64,000 nucleotides of DNA from assembly GCF_001677475.2 (NCBI RefSeq), contig NZ_CP015229.1; one strand, given 5' to 3'. Made by a program: the position numbers and the translations under genes. A model generated the notes under the pieces. It ran no database searches. It was not told the origin of the DNA and worked only from the letters and a program-made list of their open reading frames with translations. The first letter of the stretch is position 1; every line of letters starts with the position of its first letter. This DNA comes from Escherichia coli (GTDB lineage Bacteria > Pseudomonadota > Gammaproteobacteria > Enterobacterales > Enterobacteriaceae). Positions 3,264-18,872 of this stretch are shown here, one piece after another.

Positions 3264-3480
3264 GAATCCTCCCGGCCGGGATAATGTACTGAATAAGATA
3301 AGGAGTGAGCGGAAGTCCCGAAACACAAGGGAAAAAGACAACCACCCGCAAAAAAGAAATACACTCCTCACAGTTGCGCAGGGTGATTACTGTAAGGTAT
3401 TATTCGCAGCGTTAATTAATTGTTCATATTGCTTTTCTTCTTGCCAACCGCTCTTCCCGGGGGCGGCTTTTTTTGCATGT

Positions 3481-3504
3481 AAAAGGCCCCTGCTATGAGG
3501 GGCC
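3481..3504 (-). terminator. Putative intrinsic terminator upstream of esterase gene
   Basis: Minus-strand hairpin GGCCCCT-catagc-AGGGGCC followed by TTTT. Confidence 0.4.
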
Positions 3505-3752
3505 CTAGTATATGCCTAATCTCTGTATACTGCATGGTGCCGGGTGCCTCCCGGTGAGTTCGGCCTGGTGCCACCAAACCCGCGTATTCTCGCTTACGAT
3601 CATCAAAGAGATCATACCATTCACCAGTCGCCCCTCCGCACAGGGGGATTCACCATGCCAGTTTCTTTTAACAAACTCCCCGCAAATCAGACAACTGTCA
3701 ACTGTCTGAATTGTGAGACATTTAAAATTTTCGGGGCATGACTGATACCCGG

Positions 3753-4514: not shown

Positions 4515-4591
4515 TGGCGCGTTGTACTAGATTCGAACCAGTGACCGATTGCTTAGAAGGCAATTGCTCTGTCCGGCTGAGCTAACAACGC
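4515..4591 (-). tRNA. argO: tRNA-Arg (anticodon UCU)
   Basis: 77-nt cloverleaf on minus strand: acceptor GCGTTGT/ACAACGC, anticodon loop CU-UCU-AA, TTCGAAT T-loop, encoded CCA. Confidence 0.8.
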
Positions 4592-4604
4592 AGTGTACAG
4601 ATAA

Positions 4605-4681
4605 TGGACCGCCATCGAGGACTCGAACCCCGCGCAACCAGCTTCGAAGGCTGGCGCTCTATCCCGATGAGCTAATGGCGG
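4605..4681 (-). tRNA. argN: tRNA-Arg (anticodon UCG)
   Basis: 77-nt cloverleaf on minus strand: anticodon stem CCAGC/GCTGG, loop CU-UCG-AA, TTCGAGT T-loop, encoded CCA; acceptor stem begins with C (unusual). Confidence 0.7.
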
Positions 4682-4688
4682 TAGGTGA

Positions 4689-4764
4689 TGGTGGCCCTTG
4701 CTGGATTTGAACCAGCGACCTGGCGATTATGAGTCGCTCGCTCTCACCACTGAGCTAAAGGGCC
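4689..4764 (-). tRNA. ileZ: tRNA-Ile2 type (anticodon CAU)
   Basis: 76-nt cloverleaf GGCCCTTTAGCTCAGTGG...anticodon loop CU-CAU-AA...GGGCCACCA; CAU anticodon could also be Met, Ile2 inferred from Stx-phage ileZ-argN-argO arrangement. Confidence 0.7.
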
Positions 4765-9986: not shown

Positions 9987-10240
9987 AGTTTTATGTCCTT
10001 TCGATTCGTTCAGATCACCCCGTGTTCAGCAGGGCGGTCGGGTACTTGAACACCGTCGAAAGTTCGGCCCGCATCCTTAGCCTTGCGGCTGTTTTTCGGT
10101 ATACGCGCTACCCGACCATATCTGAAAAATGGACATAAAAAATCCGCATGACTGACGGGCGCGGTTTCCGCTTTCGAAGGTGTGTTCAGCACCATGGAGC
10201 GGAATATATCCCCGCTAATGCGGATTTGTCAAATCTGGCC

Positions 10241-10906: not shown

Positions 10907-11064
10907 AATGACGCCCTCTAGTGGTTTCTAAACTATCACCACCGTAAGGTTCCAATCATCGGGTGGTGAGACGCACAGGGTTGGAACTACCGGGAAACCG
11001 ACCGGCGAGCTTTTCAGCTCCCCCATGCGCCCCACCATAATTCAGATGTGCGCGTGCATACGAC

Positions 11065-11089
11065 AATAAAAAACACGCTCGCGGCGTGT
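11065..11089 (-). terminator. Intrinsic terminator upstream of antirepressor gene
   Basis: Minus-strand hairpin ACACGC-cgcga-GCGTGT followed by TTTTTATT. Confidence 0.4.
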
Positions 11090-11173
11090 GTTTGTCGCGG
11101 TCTCTATCCGGGGTTCCAATCCCGACGGCCAACTCGACCGTGCGAAGAATATAATCCCGGATAAGTAATTACG

Positions 11174-15344: not shown

Positions 15345-16427
15345 TTACCCCCTGAACCCCGGCGGAATTTCGGTGTCCGGTTCAGAAATGTGGTTCACGC
15401 AACGCTGGCTGACTGCGCCAGCCTTCGGCAGCGACCACGGATTTTCGAAATTCCTGTTCGGGCCAAAAAACGTCGATGCCTGCTGAACAAATTCAGTTCC
15501 CGCTTTCCCGGTAGCCTCCAGGTATCTTGCGTAACGCCTCACGCCATCCAGCACGACATCCGGTGACACCCCTTCGCGTAATCTGGCCCTCCAGGCATTG
15601 AACGCGGATTTCTTCGGGTTTGACCCTGCCCGATGCGGATATTCACGCCAGACCCGTTCGAACACGTCAGGATAATCAACTCGTCCCGCAGACGGTCCCG
15701 GCATCGCCCGGGTTAACCCAATCGGCTTCCCGCTCATCGCGGAATCGGCTTCAGGCTGCTGCGGTTGGTGTTGTTGCTCCGGTTCGACGAGCAGCACCTG
15801 CTGCACACAACGCCCGGAATCTGCTTCCGGTGTCATGCCAGCTGGTCCTGGACGTTCAGTCAGAACGGGACAAGAATCCACCAGTGGGTCCGTGGCGATT
15901 TTTTCGCCATGGACCAGAAGGGTTTTATCTCTTTCCTGTTCCTGTTCCTGTTCCTGTTCTTGGCTTGAAAGGGGCTCTGAAGGGGCTTCAATTTTCCGAC
16001 ATGATTCACGTCTGACATCCAGGTGGAAATCATCCTTATATCTATCATAAAAGGATGATAAAAAAGGATTTTCCAGCAACGCGGAATATTCATTTCTTAC
16101 CCCAGCACAACGGTTATCGCCTGGTTTCAGCGCTTCACCAACCTGCCATGCTGCCATTTCATGCACCCATACAACCTCAGAATCATGGTCATAGCTGCAA
16201 AAACCAGCCTCGCAAGCCATTTGAAGCCCCTTAGAAGCCCCTTCAGGATCAAGTCCGGTTTCGTGAGCAATGTACAAAACAGGCAGGTAATAAAGGCCCA
16301 GCATATTGGAATGAGGCGAGGTCATCATATACAACGCCACTACCATACATTCCGGACCAGACTTCCTTAGTTTTCGCCCTGTATCGCCTAACCAGAACTG
16401 AGGTGAAATTGTTGCGTAATTACGCAT
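15345..16427 (-). CDS. Replication initiator (lambda O-like replisome organizer)
   Basis: 360-aa ORF between cII and DnaC-like gene; internal repeats and an AT-rich tract inside the coding region resemble an O-gene-embedded origin. Confidence 0.55.
   Translation of the reverse strand: MRNYATISPQFWLGDTGRKLRKSGPECMVVALYMMTSPHSNMLGLYYLPVLYIAHETGLDPEGASKGLQMACEAGFCSYDHDSEVVWVHEMAAWQVGEALKPGDNRCAGVRNEYSALLENPFLSSFYDRYKDDFHLDVRRESCRKIEAPSEPLSSQEQEQEQEQERDKTLLVHGEKIATDPLVDSCPVLTERPGPAGMTPEADSGRCVQQVLLVEPEQQHQPQQPEADSAMSGKPIGLTRAMPGPSAGRVDYPDVFERVWREYPHRAGSNPKKSAFNAWRARLREGVSPDVVLDGVRRYARYLEATGKAGTEFVQQASTFFGPNRNFENPWSLPKAGAVSQRCVNHISEPDTEIPPGFRG
15935..15958. repeat. Hexanucleotide tandem repeat (CCTGTT)x4 inside replication gene
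   Basis: Perfect four-unit repeat; encodes (EQ)n on minus strand. Confidence 0.9.
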
Positions 16428-16460
16428 AGTCCCCTCGCATACAAGATTTACTCCATACCG

Positions 16461-16610
16461 CAGACGGTCCCGGTATCTCCCGGGTTAACCCAATCGGCTT
16501 CAGGCTGCTGCGGTTGGTGTGACTGCACATTGGTGTGACTGCACATCTTCACAGACGGTCCCGGTATCTCCGGGTTAACCCAATCGGCTTCAGGCTGCTG
16601 CGGTTGGTGT
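16461..16610. repeat. Two direct copies of a ~60-bp repeat, third copy at 15689-15775 inside the replication gene; includes tandem 15-bp repeat
   Basis: cagacggtcccggtatctc(c)cgggttaacccaatcggcttcaggctgctgcggttggtgt at 16461-16520 and 16552-16610; ggtgtgactgcacat duplicated at 16516-16545. Confidence 0.85.
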
Positions 16611-16680: not shown

Positions 16681-16977
16681 TCAGATATTCATCAGGATTT
16701 GCTCAGAACGTCCGGCCCCAACCGGACGTTTTTTATTTGCATGAACGTTAATGGCATGCTGGAAAGCCCGGCTGATCGGACTGATATCAGATGCCATCTG
16801 GAACGCGCATAAAATCGCCGCGATGTATCGCCAGTCGGTACGACTGACCTTCGATTCATGGCAGCCAATCATCTTCGCCAGTCCCCTTTGCGTCAGAGCT
16901 GACAGGTTGATAAGTAAATCCGTTTCAGCGCGATCGATATCGCGCTGCGACAGTTTGCTGTAACTTGTTTGTGACAT
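16681..16977 (-). CDS. cII: CII-like transcriptional activator
   Basis: C-terminus KKRPVGAGRSEQILMNI matches lambda CII C-terminus (KKRPAATERSEQIQMEF); position between cro and replication gene. Confidence 0.75.
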   Translation of the reverse strand: MSQTSYSKLSQRDIDRAETDLLINLSALTQRGLAKMIGCHESKVSRTDWRYIAAILCAFQMASDISPISRAFQHAINVHANKKRPVGAGRSEQILMNI

Positions 16978-17120: not shown

Positions 17121-17360
17121 TTATCGTTGACGATCAGGATTCGCTACATTGCGTAACCATTCGGCGGTAAATTTGCCATCAGATGCATTGGCGAGAATTT
17201 CCGAATAGTTGGTTTTCATCGTGTATTCGGTGCGAGGTAACGCTCCGTTTTTAACCCACTTATGAATTGCAACATTTGACAACCCGCATAAACGGGCAGC
17301 GACTGTTTGACCACCAACAGCTTTTACTGCGAATTGTATCGGATTCATACTGCTATCCAT
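17121..17360 (-). CDS. Cro-like HTH repressor
   Basis: 79-aa ORF with HTH-like QTVAARLCGLSNVAIHKWVK; divergent from cI. Confidence 0.6.
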   Translation of the reverse strand: MDSSMNPIQFAVKAVGGQTVAARLCGLSNVAIHKWVKNGALPRTEYTMKTNYSEILANASDGKFTAEWLRNVANPDRQR

Positions 17361-17440
17361 TAATTTAGTTAACTTCGAGTTAATGTTAACTATTAGCTGA
17401 CAGTTATGTCAACTATGTTTGATAATTAACGTATGGTTAA
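17361..17440. promoter_or_regulatory. Divergent cro/cI promoter-operator region (OR)
   Basis: Two perfect TTAAC-N5-GTTAA palindromes (17369-17383, 17426-17440); rc TTGACA at 17407-17412 for cro; CTGACA-18bp-GATAAT ending 7 nt before cI ATG. Confidence 0.5.
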
Positions 17441-18203
17441 AAAAGATGAACTAAAAGAAGCGTTCTCAAAGAGACTACTACAGGCATTATTAGATGCAGG
17501 TGTGGGCGGACGCGGTCAGGCTAAGCGGATTCAGAATGCAATGAAACTGCGAGGCATTGATATCTCTGAACCGGGGATCTGGAAATGGCTTAATTCTGCA
17601 TCAATTCCAGAAAAAACAAGTATTTTGGCACTTAGTGACTGGCTTTCCGTGAGGCCGGAGTGGTTGGAGTATGGCAGTAACGAGCCATCCGTAAAACAGC
17701 GACCTTCAATTCCAAACGAATCAGAATGGGGTTCCCTTGAAACTTGGGACAGAAATACACCACTACGAGATGATGAAGTTGAGGTGCCATATCTGAAAGA
17801 CATTGAGTTTGCATGCGGTGACGGAAGAGTTCATTGCGAAGATCATAATGGTTTTAAATTACGCTTCTCAAAAGCAACCCTGCGCCGTGTCGGAGCTAAC
17901 AGTGATGGTTCTGGTGTGCTTTGTTTTCCGGCTACTGGTGATAGCATGGAGCCCGTGATACCAGATGGAACAACAATCGCAGTAGACACAAACAACAAAC
18001 GTATTGTTGACGGCAAACTCTACGCCATCGCACAGCCTGGTGTCGGTGATGAAAAACTGAAGCGTATAAAACTATTGTACAGACGCCCCGGTGGAAAACT
18101 AATCATACGCAGTTATAACAGTGAAGAGTACCCTGACGAAGAAGCAGATACTCAAAGCGTGGAGATTATCGGAAAAGTTTTCTGGTATTCAGTTCTGCTT
18201 TAG
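17433..18203 (+). CDS. cI: CI-type prophage repressor (HTH N-terminus, S24 LexA-like C-terminus)
   Basis: 256-aa ORF with GDSMEP active-site motif and K-containing LexA-like C-terminal domain. Confidence 0.85.
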   Translation: MVKKDELKEAFSKRLLQALLDAGVGGRGQAKRIQNAMKLRGIDISEPGIWKWLNSASIPEKTSILALSDWLSVRPEWLEYGSNEPSVKQRPSIPNESEWGSLETWDRNTPLRDDEVEVPYLKDIEFACGDGRVHCEDHNGFKLRFSKATLRRVGANSDGSGVLCFPATGDSMEPVIPDGTTIAVDTNNKRIVDGKLYAIAQPGVGDEKLKRIKLLYRRPGGKLIIRSYNSEEYPDEEADTQSVEIIGKVFWYSVLL

Positions 18204-18213
18204 CCCCTCTCCC

Positions 18214-18237
18214 CCCGGCCTCAGAGCCGGGTTTTTT
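18214..18237 (+). terminator. Intrinsic terminator after cI
   Basis: Hairpin CCCGGC-ctcaga-GCCGGG followed by TTTTTT. Confidence 0.55.
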
Positions 18238-18366
18238 ATTAACCCAGCTAGCCAAAACTCATCTATCCTAGCTTCTATACCCCTTCATACTTGATAACCG
18301 TCGCTCACCGAACAAGCAATAATAATTAACTAAAAATCAAAAACATAGAATTTCCCCACAATAATT

Positions 18367-18409
18367 TTAACTTTTGGTTATTGACTAATGCTAACCAACA
18401 GTTAATAAT
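18367..18409 (+). promoter_or_regulatory. Candidate pL with operator half-sites (OL)
   Basis: TTGACT(18381-18386)-17bp-AATAAT(18404-18409); operator-like TTAAC-N5-GTTAT (18367-18381) and TAAC-N5-GTTA (18392-18404). Confidence 0.4.
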
Positions 18410-18445
18410 CATTTCACCAACAGGTCACCGATAACAACGCGGCCC

Positions 18446-18473
18446 CAATTGGAAAGCTCTTTAAACAACGTCG
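18446..18473 (+). promoter_or_regulatory. Candidate nutL (boxA + boxB hairpin)
   Basis: GCTCTTTAA (boxA-like) followed 5 nt later by GTCGA-acac-TCGAC hairpin, between putative pL and N-like gene. Confidence 0.35.
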
Positions 18474-18599
18474 AACACTCGACTACGTGGCTGCAAAGCC
18501 AGATCGCCCAACCGCATAAGCTGTCGGGTGCAATGCCGAAGCAATCATCTCAGGGGAGGCTTCGAGATTGCATCGCCAAAGTTTATTCGGGAGAAATCT

Positions 18600-18872
18600 A
18601 TGTCCAGAAAAACAGAATTTAAAGGCACCGCAGCTTCCCGCCGCAGAGCACGCAGGGCCGAGCTTCAGGGTCTGGAGGCATCAAGCGCTGATAAACTGCA
18701 CCGCCCCACACCTTCACGGGTGTACTTACAGTGCAAACGCAAAGCCGCAATGCGAGCTGAAGTAGTCACGATAACGACATTAACCAGAAAATATGAAGGC
18801 TCTACTTGTCTTCCAAACACTGCACTTTACGCAGCTGGCTATCGCAAATCAGGAACAATAACAGCGAGGTGA
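18600..18872 (+). CDS. N-like antiterminator with arginine-rich motif
   Basis: 90-aa ORF; N-terminal TAASRRRARRAELQGLE resembles lambda N ARM (QTRRRERRAEKQAQW); first gene right of cI. Confidence 0.55.
   Translation: MSRKTEFKGTAASRRRARRAELQGLEASSADKLHRPTPSRVYLQCKRKAAMRAEVVTITTLTRKYEGSTCLPNTALYAAGYRKSGTITAR

Follow-up and report, generated by a model that had tools for sequence, protein, structure and literature searches.

Identity and organization of the immunity region

The divergent genes cro and cI in the window (the whole stretch of 64,000 nucleotides of Escherichia coli contig NZ_CP015229.1 that was analysed) raise the question of which operator word governs this switch, and of how a repressor gene with no Shine-Dalgarno sequence before it comes to be translated. 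DNA comparison showed the immunity region to be 98.7-99% identical to Stx phages POCJ13, 75/02 Stx and phiSTEC1589, in which the annotated gene order is cII, cro, cI, N. In the window, cro (17121-17348, minus strand) and cI (17433-18203, plus strand) are separated by 84 bp that contain candidates for the promoters PR and PRM. A second set of operators was found on the promoter pL, followed by nut-like elements and an N-type antiterminator gene, as is the rule for lambdoid immunity regions. Positions 17121-18872 very probably form the lysis/lysogeny switch of a POCJ13 / 75-02-type Stx prophage, a homologue of the switch of phage 933W that uses another operator word. The element is of an ordinary type, while its operator word, TTAAC-N5-GTTAA, is a specificity not described earlier.

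The preliminary description had read this locus as an immunity region with cI/Cro operators and a pL/OL pair. This reading was upheld by the homology of the cI N-terminal domain and of Cro to their 933W counterparts, by the shared layout, by the OL pairs and by covariation among relatives. The comparison drawn there with lambda, on account of a PRM-like leaderless cI, is to be amended in that the closest analogue is 933W and not lambda. Facts on 933W were taken from later open papers and annotated GenBank records. A search of NCBIfam with cI, Cro, N and cII gave nothing useful.

Operators between cro and cI

A search of the window for TTAAC-N5-GTTAA, a check suggested in the preliminary description, returned only two exact matches, at 17369-17383 and 17426-17440, both at the cro/cI junction, with 0.05 expected in 64 kb; two or more exact matches occurred in none of 100 shuffles. 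With one mismatch allowed, five matches were obtained (1.88 expected in 64 kb), four of them lying in the two regulatory regions, namely the two OR palindromes and the sites at 18367-18381 and 18391-18405. The sequences and positions of the two perfect palindromes had been given correctly, except that the second does not merely lie between the genes, as it spans the start codon of cI; the inventory had also overlooked OR2 (17393-17407) and the promoter PR.

OR1 (17369-17383, TTAACTTCGAGTTAA), a perfect palindrome, lies across the presumed start of PR, immediately downstream of the -10 element of that promoter, and occupies the place of 933W OR1 in annotated 933W-type regions. Position 6 is T or C in both of its halves, as it is in 27 of 27 distinct relatives, which agrees with the preference measured for 933W (PMC3317979). 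OR3 (17426-17440, TTAACGTATGGTTAA), the other perfect palindrome, takes in the edge of the PRM -10 as well as the cI start codon and has the A of that codon (17433) as its centre, in a register identical to that of 933W OR3, CGTACTCATGGTTCA. The G at position 6 of its left half suggests, judging from the relatives and from PMC3317979, that it is weaker than OR1. Between them lies the weak site OR2 (TTAGCTGACAGTTAT, two mismatches), which contains the PRM -35 hexamer, falls on the -35 and spacer of PR, and holds the same position as 933W OR2, its centre being 24 bp from that of OR1 and 33 bp from that of OR3 (centres at 17376, 17400 and 17433). OR2 carries G at position 4 (TTAGC) and may be barely occupied, because this change lowers affinity more than 6-fold in 933W. 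A site at +24 was found in all relatives, mostly as TTAACTGACAGTTAT, and among members of the C and G classes described below the left half of OR2 varies with the specificity class. An alternative OR2 at 17386-17400 (TTAACTATTAGCTGA) was rejected, as its TTAAC is absent from the relatives.

Position 2 is T in the OR and OL sites, the left half of the proximal OL site deviating at position 1 and not at position 2. No further dyad family was found in OR or OL. The prediction that the five 15-bp dyads (OR1-3 and two OL sites) are the operators of cI and Cro is supported by these features.

Promoters and start codons of cro and cI

The PR candidate (17383-17412, minus strand) consists of TTGACA (17412-17407) and TAACAT (17388-17383) with an 18-nt spacer, and matched 10 of 12 consensus positions in a consensus scan. 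Its TTGAC, adjoining OR2, is kept in 32 of 32 distinct OR versions. The -10 element TAACAT, at its 18-nt spacing, is less canonical and weaker than in relatives, which have TATAAC or TATATT, and is differently placed. A second PR candidate, TTAACA-16-TAAATT, was set aside, as transcription from it would begin 7 nt before the conserved cro ATG and its -35 lacks conservation.

Translation of cro, which encodes a YdaS/Cro-type HTH protein of 75 aa, most likely starts at 17348 (MNPIQ...) and not at 17360, the earlier choice, which lies 12 nt too far upstream. The longer ORF is disfavoured by the 75-aa form annotated in RefSeq and by the cro genes of relatives, which all start with MNP..., 20-25 nt beyond OR1 and mostly with a Shine-Dalgarno sequence.

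The PRM candidate (17397-17426, plus strand) comprises CTGACA (17397-17402), an 18-nt spacer and GATAAT (17421-17426), again matching 10 of 12 consensus positions. Among the 32 distinct OR versions, the -10 is GATAAT, GATATT or GATACT, always 6 nt before the ATG, and the -35 is CTGACA in 24. The reported distance of 7 nt between this promoter and the cI ATG is accurate when counted to the A at 17433, the seventh base after the end of the -10 at 17426. Six bases, TAACGT, lie in between; they contain no Shine-Dalgarno sequence, as had been stated, and their TAA (17427-17429) is an in-frame stop 3 nt upstream of the start codon. The same six bases precede the ATG of lambda cI. The geometry conserved in the 32 distinct OR versions supports the prediction that the cI mRNA is leaderless. 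A precedent alongside lambda cI is PaaR2 of CP-933P, the leaderless translation of which was established by 5' RACE and N-terminal sequencing (PMC8630535).

The region between cI and N

An intrinsic terminator (18214-18240, plus strand; a 6-bp all-GC stem with a 6-nt loop at 18214-18231, and a T run) begins 11 nt past the cI stop, and hence directly after cI as previously noted. The DNA beyond cI is non-coding, with no ORF longer than 57 aa in 18204-18599, although it extends over 396 bp, between the cI stop (18203) and the N ATG (18600), and not over about 360 bp. Given the terminator and the lack of such ORFs, the claim that no rexAB-like genes are present stands. In relatives, the slot between cI and OL was found to hold RexA (E 2e-99), BstA (E 3.5e-124), PDC-M63 and PDC-M66; this site of defence genes is empty here.

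The promoter pL (18381-18409, plus strand) consists of TTGACT (18381-18386), a 17-nt spacer and AATAAT (18404-18409), with 10 of 12 consensus positions, and the same hexamers occur at the same offsets in 39 of 54 relatives. The two imperfect operator copies described on this promoter were recovered as one-mismatch sites 24 bp apart, a distance that was found to be constant (centres here at 18374 and 18398). The distal, OL2-like site (18367-18381, TTAACTTTTGGTTAT) ends in the T that is the first base of the pL -35, and the proximal, OL1-like site (18391-18405, CTAACCAACAGTTAA) lies in the pL spacer and overlaps the -10. The distal site reads TTAAC-N5-GTTAT in the 18 distinct versions found, and its pentamers are invariant in 11 near-identical copies in which the surrounding segment is hypervariable. 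OL was not part of the pattern by which the relatives were retrieved, so that the OL pairs constitute a test independent of that pattern; of 44 distinct relatives for which downstream DNA was available, 33 had exactly two OL sites, 24 bp apart. Seven positions vary in the OL core, and all of them fall outside the 20 pentamer positions (hypergeometric p ~0.003). A possible weak third OL site (18326-18340, TTAACTAAAAATCAA, two mismatches) was noted 41 bp to the left of the distal site, and a comparable TTAAC-N5-xTTCA occurs at -42 in about 20 of 56 distinct OL regions.

Further downstream, a boxA-like sequence (GCTCTTTAA, 18456-18464) and a boxB-like hairpin (GTCGAACACTCGAC, 18470-18483), the latter also picked up by the terminator scan, make 18456-18483 (plus strand) a candidate nutL by analogy with the lambda nut sites. 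From 18456 onward to N, the DNA is shared with many Stx phages at about 93%. The first gene of the pL operon (18600-18872, plus strand) encodes an N-like antiterminator of 90 aa with an arginine-rich N terminus, which matched PHROG 271 (anti-termination protein N-like, E 2e-22) and is annotated as N in POCJ13.

The cI and Cro proteins

The cI repressor (256 aa) is composed of an HTH N-terminal domain and an S24 autocleavage domain, the latter detected by Pfam as Peptidase_S24 at residues 126-250 (E 5e-16). The motifs GDS171MEP, K210 in KRIK and A127-C128-G129 point to a Ser171/Lys210 dyad and to cleavage at Cys128-Gly129, a Cys-Gly site that we take to be used by analogy with UmuD. The C-terminal domain resembles those of the Salmonella UPF_BP1 and Yersinia YP3 repressors and not that of 933W, and cooperativity may for this reason differ from that of 933W, the type of which is characterized by non-cooperative binding and by similar affinities for OR2 and OR3. 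These two phages were considered as partners for phylogenetic footprinting and rejected, as their likeness is confined to the C-terminal domain, their HTH domains and operators being different.

Pfam found no HTH in cI. BLASTP, however, aligned residues 1-83 with 933W cI at 33% identity (E 1e-13), and a profile of the cI family matched the N-terminal domains of P22 c2 (E 1e-6) and TP901-1 CI (E 1e-5). An AF2 model (pLDDT 86) has five helices (3-21, 29-39, 46-53, 61-70 and 75-80), and Foldseek placed it with the TP901-1 CI N-terminal domain, P22 c2 and 434 Cro, at a probability of 1.0 to phage repressor N-terminal domains. The N-terminal domain is a 933W-like HTH that Pfam misses. Its recognition helix is E46-L53 (EPGIWKWL), in which K51-W52 align with K46-W47 of 933W and are invariant in 24 diverse members. 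Cro matched Pfam YdaS_toxin (E 6.6e-6) and PHROG 35 (transcriptional repressor), and is 37% identical to 933W Cro (E 2e-16).

Relatives and operator classes

A word-indexed homologue search with the cI N-terminal domain returned only nine proteins, mostly partial, and scans with DNA patterns were far more productive. In 67 of 67 IMG/VR loci with OR1 and OR3 at matching spacing, a homologous MVK... repressor was found to start in OR3; there are 32 distinct OR versions with OR2 at +24, and the operator positions are also kept in genomes of seven named genera. As the pattern fixed OR1 and OR3, freedom from bias is limited to OR2, OL, position 6 and, in a relaxed scan, position 2; T or C occupies position 6 in 140 of 140 half-sites of OR1, OLa and OLb among relatives. 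The relaxed scan of viral contigs gave at least 106 distinct OR versions. Among the matches listed, position 2 covaries at the four free positions in 102 of 106 distinct ORs, which fall into a T class (at least 32 distinct ORs), a C class (at least 51) and a G class (at least 19), and these classes track the recognition helix of cI. The four ORs with mixed position-2 bases lack a repressor ORF and were dismissed as chance matches. A double-strand match in Proteus myxofaciens (L195), considered as a second leaderless gene, was likewise rejected as a chance CCAT in OR1.

We tentatively raise the possibility that these loci belong to one large 933W-type family, spread over Enterobacterales and Pseudomonas, whose immunity specificity depends chiefly on one operator base, that at position 2 and its mate, read through a small code of helix residues. 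Trp at helix position 5 may specify T, Lys at helix position 2 may specify G, and Gln/Thr may specify C. If this is true, all T-class prophages, comprising the present Stx phage and prophages of Citrobacter, Enterobacter, Proteus, Morganella, Xenorhabdus and Edwardsiella, would be cross-immune despite N-terminal domains only 45-70% identical, and specificity would be re-programmable by one or two substitutions. The three operator classes, one base pair apart, offer a natural system in which the divergence of immunity specificities can be studied.

These relatives bear on two other accounts of the palindromes. It is extremely unlikely that they are chance AT-rich motifs, or are tied to the nearby HpaI-like GTTAAC words at 17368 and 17385, and have no regulatory role: the region is indeed AT-rich, but two palindromes were observed where 0.05 were expected, their positions are kept in 32 distinct relatives and in genomes of the seven genera, OL pairs appear in the independent test, and position 2 covaries. 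A regulatory role could also be served if the palindromes were read mainly by Cro or another factor and cI bound other sequences. Since cro and cI are co-inherited, the two proteins cannot be told apart by the way in which position 2 covaries with the cI helix. Pfam detects no HTH in cI, and a CI clade of Eru4 phages has been called HTH-less (PMC8951638). Nonetheless, binding to equivalent sites has been measured for the homologous domain of 933W (PMC3317979), Lys51 of cI matches the 933W K46 that reads the conserved C:G at position 5, both profile and predicted fold are those of a phage repressor HTH, other dyad families are absent from OR and OL, and lambdoid cI and Cro share operators, all of which make this account very unlikely. 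The palindromes are best regarded as operators recognized by cI.

Proposed regulation and its significance

In the mechanism proposed, OR1 and the sites of OL would be occupied by cI dimers, with the weak OR2 joining them as repressor levels rise, and PR and pL would thereby be shut. PRM, with its -35 inside OR2 and back to back with that of PR, would come into use when PR is blocked, whether because repressor activates it directly, as has been reported for 933W, or because the competing promoter has been silenced. With still more repressor, OR3 would be filled and PRM shut, keeping repressor low in the hair-trigger pattern described for 933W. Transcripts from PRM would have their 5' end no more than 2 nt from the AUG, so that cI would be translated without a leader or Shine-Dalgarno sequence. 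RecA-stimulated self-cleavage of cI (Cys128-Gly129, Ser171/Lys210) would lead to prophage induction, after which pL would read through nutL into N.

Two steps of this scheme have alternatives. OR2 may not activate PRM, repressor at OR1 simply removing the competing PR while occupancy of OR2 is neutral or inhibitory. Its centre is some 33 bp ahead of the point at which PRM is presumed to start, and CTGACA forms operator positions 5-10; as OR2 is centred near -33 of PRM and not -42, activation contacts of the lambda type cannot be assumed. The -35 hexamers of PR and PRM are 4 bp apart (TTGACA-TAAC-TGTCAG), PRM, which agrees with the consensus at 10 of 12 positions, might work without an activator, and PR and PRM of phage 434 are described as being used in a mutually exclusive way (cited in PMC4848623). 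Against this, in 933W, with the same overlap of OR2 and -35, the repressor is reported to activate PRM first and to repress it at about 4-fold higher concentration (PMC5977221, citing Bullwinkle and Koudelka 2011), and a purely competitive scheme is held to be somewhat unlikely. The cI message, for its part, might be leadered, starting farther upstream or on a long PRE-type transcript, with the AUG reached by a mechanism other than Shine-Dalgarno pairing. A CII-type site, TTGC-N6-TTGT, at about 16953-16966 suggests a PRE transcript with a long leader, and in one relative (L008) a GGAG that overlaps the -10 stands 9 nt before the ATG. A leader is nevertheless improbable in view of the -10 placed exactly 6 nt before the ATG in 32 distinct ORs, with an operator half-site and no Shine-Dalgarno sequence in between, the in-frame TAA 3 nt upstream, the absence of any other plus-strand promoter-like site between cro and cI, and the leaderless state of lambda cI and PaaR2 in the same arrangement (PMC8630535). 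A leaderless cI expressed from PRM is retained as the preferred reading.

That the two perfect sites fall on PR and on the start of PRM suggests a strongly autorepressed cI gene and little repressor, which would bear on the ease of prophage induction and hence on toxin production. For Eru4-type Stx1 phages (75/02 Stx, POCJ13), a map of the operators in their immunity region is now provided, together with a mechanism that can be tested. A published survey associates Eru4 phages with CI clades III and V and describes clade III as HTH-less and of unknown regulatory function (PMC8951638).

Comparison with known switches

As in lambda, cI and cro are divergent, OR has three sites, nutL and N come after OL/pL, the repressor is of the S24 autocleaving kind and the -10 ends 6 nt before the cI AUG. 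Lambda operators, however, are 17 bp and not 15 bp long, and its OR3 lies upstream of the start codon, whereas OR3 covers the start codon here. Lambda OR2 is centred near -42 of PRM, whereas the present OR2 covers the -35, and lambda has three OL sites and rexAB after cI, in contrast to two clear OL sites and no rex. The N-terminal domains of the P22 c2 and 434 repressors have the same five-helix HTH (P22 c2 by profile, E 1e-6; TM ~0.75 on the target), but their operators differ and the loop between helices 2 and 3 is longer here. In the PaaR2/YdaS pair of CP-933P (E. coli O157:H7), too, the genes for a cI-like regulator and a YdaS-type Cro are divergent, PR and PRM overlap in the short stretch between them, and operators accompany a PL-like promoter (PMC8630535). 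PaaR2 differs in having no S24 domain, in heading a toxin-antitoxin operon and in its 18-bp palindromes of another consensus, GTTTAGTAA.

The closest likeness is to 933W, to which both the cI N-terminal domain (33%) and Cro (37%) are homologous. The two switches share 15-bp dyads in which positions 4-5 are A-C and position 6 is T/C (PMC3317979), three OR sites of which OR3 has its centre at the A of the cI start codon, the PRM -35 within OR2, two OL sites, and a cI that begins MV..., its GTT codon inside the operator. In 933W operators, AC at positions 4-5 is invariant and T or C is preferred at position 6 (PMC3317979), two properties also seen here; 933W is without OL3 (PMC5977221). The spacing of OR sites is 24 and 32 bp in the 933W type and 24 and 33 bp here. 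Furthermore, the present switch has perfect palindromes at both OR1 and OR3, a 5-residue insertion before the recognition helix, an S24 C-terminal domain from another lineage, and neither stk nor any other gene between cI and OL. Position 2 of the operator is G in 933W, where it is read by S41/K42, and T here, where E46/P47 stand in the place of these residues and Trp occupies helix position 5. The architecture is shared, and with T in place of G at position 2 the two phages are, as judged by sequence, not homoimmune.

Genes of the immunity region

The immunity region was found to consist of a small, leftward HTH gene, cro (at the left end of 17121-18872), an 84 bp control region, the rightward cI gene for a 256 aa repressor (17433-18203) and an arginine-rich N-like gene of 90 aa (18600-18872), with cII-like, O-like and DnaC-like genes lying further out to the left of cro. 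Cro is of the YdaS/Cro type, cI possesses a Peptidase_S24 domain (residues 126-250, Pfam, E 5e-16), and PHROGs assignments were concordant for cI, Cro, N and CII. Shigella phages POCJ13 and 75/02 Stx and Escherichia phage phiSTEC1589-Stx1c carry immunity regions 98.7-99% identical to that of the window, and the POCJ13 annotation shows the same succession of genes (CII-like, repressor, CI-like, N-like). From approximately 18456 onward (nutL and N), identity of about 93% was shared with many other Stx phages. This POCJ13-type region is present in 13 of 5426 complete E. coli genomes. In E. coli genomes with the region, RefSeq (PGAP) places a frameshifted ‘hypothetical protein’ pseudogene at ~18446-18620, from the nutL leader into the beginning of N, which is probably a spurious ORF overlying a transcribed leader.

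Operators and promoters

Searching the 64 kb for TTAAC-N5-GTTAA returned two exact matches (17369-17383 and 17426-17440) against 0.05 expected, and no shuffle gave two. At one mismatch, five matches were found against 1.9 expected, four of them being these two sites and those at 18367-18381 and 18391-18405. The two perfect palindromes at cro/cI of the preliminary description are thus the only exact matches, and its two imperfect copies on the TTGACT-17-AATAAT promoter were also recovered. The sequence statements of that description were all confirmed, the length of the non-coding stretch being the one figure changed, but a two-mismatch site between cro and cI, TTAGCTGACAGTTAT, had been overlooked. 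The operators between these genes, OR1, OR2 (the added site) and OR3, have their centres at 17376, 17400 and 17433, 24 and 33 bp apart, the last centre being the A of the cI ATG, and the pair right of cI is termed OL.

Consensus scanning identified candidate promoters PR (TTGACA-18-TAACAT) toward cro, pL (TTGACT-17-AATAAT, 18381-18409) rightward and PRM toward cI, the last being the previously described CTGACA-18-GATAAT (10/12), whose -10 hexamer ends at 17426. OR3 spans the final base of this hexamer, the start point and the first three cI codons. The operator of phage 933W is symmetric and 15 bp long, with positions 4-5 (A, C) invariant and T or C preferred at position 6 (PMC3317979). In the window, OR1 and OR3 are perfect dyads, with OR2 carrying G at position 4, a position invariant in 933W.

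The -10 region of PR contains an additional TTAAC (17386-17390) that is particular to POCJ13-type OR, relatives having GGTTATATC or similar. As it displaces the canonical TATAAC -10 of the relatives, PR of the window phage may be weaker or may use an 18-nt spacer. A lone half-site was observed 4 nt past OR1 on the cro side (17360-17364; TTAAT in the window), being TTAAC in 17 and TTAAT in 7 of approximately 46 distinct relatives. No second half lies at operator spacing from it, and it could possibly serve Cro binding, provide an extra repressor contact or have no role. At 18326-18340, to the left of the distal OL site by 41 bp, TTAACTAAAAATCAA was found, and of 56 distinct OL regions about 20 have a similar TTAAC-N5-xTTCA at -42. 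The site is possibly a weak OL3, an operator that 933W reportedly lacks.

Conservation of the layout among relatives

Protein searches identified a relative on an unassigned contig (N-terminal domain 66% identical) with TTAACTACGAGTTAA, TTAACTGACAGTTAT and TTAACAAATGGTTAA as its operators, a second (57%) with the operator word of the window, and Pseudomonas prophages (43%) in which each of the three OR places reads TCAAC-N5-GTTGA, so that the layout was already seen to be shared. IMG/VR was then scanned for OR1 and OR3 at the window distance, giving 67 loci, all of which encode a homologous repressor starting MVK or MVN at an ATG within OR3. Together with the relatives fetched earlier, these amounted to 32 distinct OR versions, in which the informative features are those left free by the scan pattern, OL being wholly outside it. 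A site at +24 was present in every version, mostly as TTAACTGACAGTTAT, and was adjoined in all 32 by GTCAA, the PR -35 TTGAC on the opposite strand. The PRM -35 CTGACA was central in OR2 in 24 of the 32, with the PRM -10 (GATAAT, GATATT or GATACT) at a constant 6 nt from the ATG.

Exactly two OL sites (≤1 mismatch), 24 bp apart, were found in 33 of the 44 distinct loci with downstream DNA. The first is invariably TTAAC-N5-GTTAT, its last T opening TTGACT, and the second lies within the pL spacer and over the -10. Position 6 was T or C in 140/140 half-sites of OR1 and the two OL sites of relatives. In the left OR3 half, 10 of 21 versions, the window among them, had G or A at this position, so that by the 933W rule OR3 would be tuned for weaker binding than OR1. 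Among 11 near-identical copies, seven variable positions fell inside 18367-18405, with none in the 20 pentamer positions (p ~0.003).

The pL/OL segment as a whole (18352-18450) was observed to be hypervariable, having 16 variable positions in 99 bp among these 11 copies, which are otherwise ~99% identical. By comparison, the 344 bp of cro plus OR did not vary at all, and cI varied at 1.2% of positions. Within the segment, a pyrimidine patch of 6 bp (18352-18357) is different in almost all of the copies. The variability may stem from tuning of pL, from recombination or from a mutational hot spot.

Specificity classes and the N-terminal domain of cI

A relaxed scan left position 2 free in both halves of OR1 and OR3, and the matches listed, together with the earlier loci, gave at least 106 distinct OR versions. 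Among the 106 listed, all four places held C in 51, T in 32 and G in 19, the four mixed versions all being without a repressor ORF. Both the left half of OR2 and the recognition helix of the repressor track the class. The helix is xPGIWKW or TTAVWKW in the T class (invariably Trp at helix position 5), TQAISKW or TTAIGKW in the C class, and PKAVSKW or DKGAGKW in the G class (invariably Lys at helix position 2; 933W has SKGVSKW). At the level of sequence, this covariation shows a single symmetric protein, encoded adjacently, as the predicted reader of all four half-sites. Judged by its operators and helix, the window is a member of the T class, a class without any studied phage. In the deposited phage collection, only five records, the POCJ13 group, exceeded 60% identity in the N-terminal domain, and the T-class layout was found in species-representative genomes of Citrobacter, Enterobacter, Proteus, Morganella, Xenorhabdus, Arsenophonus and Edwardsiella.

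In a survey of CI proteins from Stx phages, 75/02 Stx and POCJ13 were classed as Eru4, a type accompanied by CI clades III and V, clade III being described as HTH-less and of unknown regulatory function (PMC8951638). Pfam found no HTH in the cI of the window, in keeping with clade III. However, a profile of 24 diverse N-terminal domains matched the DNA-binding domain of P22 c2 (E 1e-6), the N-terminal domain of TP901-1 CI (1e-5) and, at a weak level, that of the 434 repressor. Modelling with AlphaFold2 (mean pLDDT 86) gave a five-helix structure in which residues 46-53 form the recognition helix, and the Foldseek neighbours of the model were the TP901-1 CI N-terminal domain, P22 c2, 434 Cro and lambda repressor. 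Profile, model and neighbours indicate that the domain is an HTH, which Pfam likely misses because of a 5-residue insertion ahead of the recognition helix, common to the T and C classes.

The interval between cI and OL

The absence of rex-like genes and the terminator directly after cI were both borne out, with a GC-rich hairpin and T run located by consensus scan at 18214-18240 and no ORF longer than 57 aa in 18204-18599. This interval is non-coding as proposed, with a length of 396 bp in place of ~360 bp. In relatives, OL follows the cI stop after anything between 81 and 2433 bp, and five loci with the same operators (L030, L044, L019, L062 and L077) contain defence genes there. Slot contents of relatives included RexA (E 2e-99) with a membrane protein, BstA (E 3.5e-124), PDC-M63A/B and PDC-M66A/B (a HipA-like kinase pair). 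The position is therefore a defence-gene slot, empty in the window.

Proposed working of the switch

Six bases (TAACGT) separate the end of GATAAT from the A of the cI ATG at 17433, and the in-frame TAA at 17427-17429 precludes a start of the cI ORF further upstream. The next in-frame Met is residue 37, a start that would remove the first two helices. This geometry is best accounted for by leaderless translation of cI, which is likely and has direct precedents in lambda and PaaR2 (PMC8630535).

While the parts of the switch and their positions are observed, their functioning is proposed by analogy with 933W and lambdoid phages. Repressor dimers on OR1 (PR start) and OR2 (PR -35 and spacer) would turn PR off, occupation of the OL pair would turn pL off, and OR3 would provide negative autoregulation. 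The perfect dyads of OR1 and OR3, with the position-4 G of OR2, probably keep the repressor level low, as proposed for 933W. Repressor bound at OR2 may also activate PRM. That PRM simply gains access once PR is blocked, with no activation needed, is the less likely alternative; its near-consensus sequence and its -35 within OR2, 4 bp from the opposite-strand PR -35, speak for this, but activation by OR2-bound repressor has been reported for 933W. Induction would proceed via RecA-stimulated cleavage of cI, as suggested by the S24 domain, with candidate residues Ser171 (in GDSMEP) and Lys210 (in KRIK). The bond cleaved is presumably Cys128-Gly129, by analogy with UmuD. Just within the start of the cII-like gene, TTGC-N6-TTGT (16953-16966, + strand) resembles the lambda CII motif at PRE and would yield an establishment transcript running antisense through cro and into cI.

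Other features of the window

A repeat of ~60 bp is present in three copies, one within the O-like replication gene and two in the small ORF upstream of it, and a perfect 16-bp tandem duplication was also noted (15686-15771, 16458-16520, 16552-16610, 16514-16545). These are possibly origin iterons, and in two ORFs they give rise to a recurring QQPEAD peptide. A set of three tRNA genes (Arg-tct, Arg-tcg and one with a CAT anticodon) was observed in the arrangement known from upstream of stx in Stx phages, as were minus-strand Rfam matches to STnc100, sRNA-Xcc1, C4 antisense RNA and isrK (together 3475-3687, 4515-4764, 10028-10117 and 10959-11141).

Comparison with phage 933W

Residues 1-83 of cI were 33% identical to the 933W repressor (E 1e-13) and Cro was 37% identical to 933W Cro (E 2e-16), and by sequence the nearest characterised relative of the switch is 933W, not lambda. 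GenBank annotations of the 933W type give OR1 as CGTACTTTCAGTACG, OR2 as TGAACTGAAAGTTTT and OR3 as CGTACTCATGGTTCA. All are 15-mers, their centres are separated by 24 and 32 bp, and the midpoint of OR3 is the A of the cI start codon. The window matches this plan, with a second spacing of 33 bp versus 32. 933W reportedly has no OL3, its repressor binds non-cooperatively, and PRM is repressed via OR3 at just ~4-fold above the maximally activating repressor level (PMC5977221).

Added here are a complete operator map, the link to 933W, a correction of the HTH-less label and the three-class covariation, with the functional steps being predictions. The preliminary description was borne out and its interpretation largely correct, although the element itself is of an ordinary kind, a new member of the 933W-type immunity switches with a new specificity class. 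In 933W, position 2 is G and is contacted by S41/K42, with K46 contacting position 5 (PMC3317979). In the alignment, 933W K46-W47 correspond to K51-W52 of the window cI, whereas S41/K42 are replaced by E46/P47, which is consistent with a conserved C at position 5 and with T instead of G at position 2.
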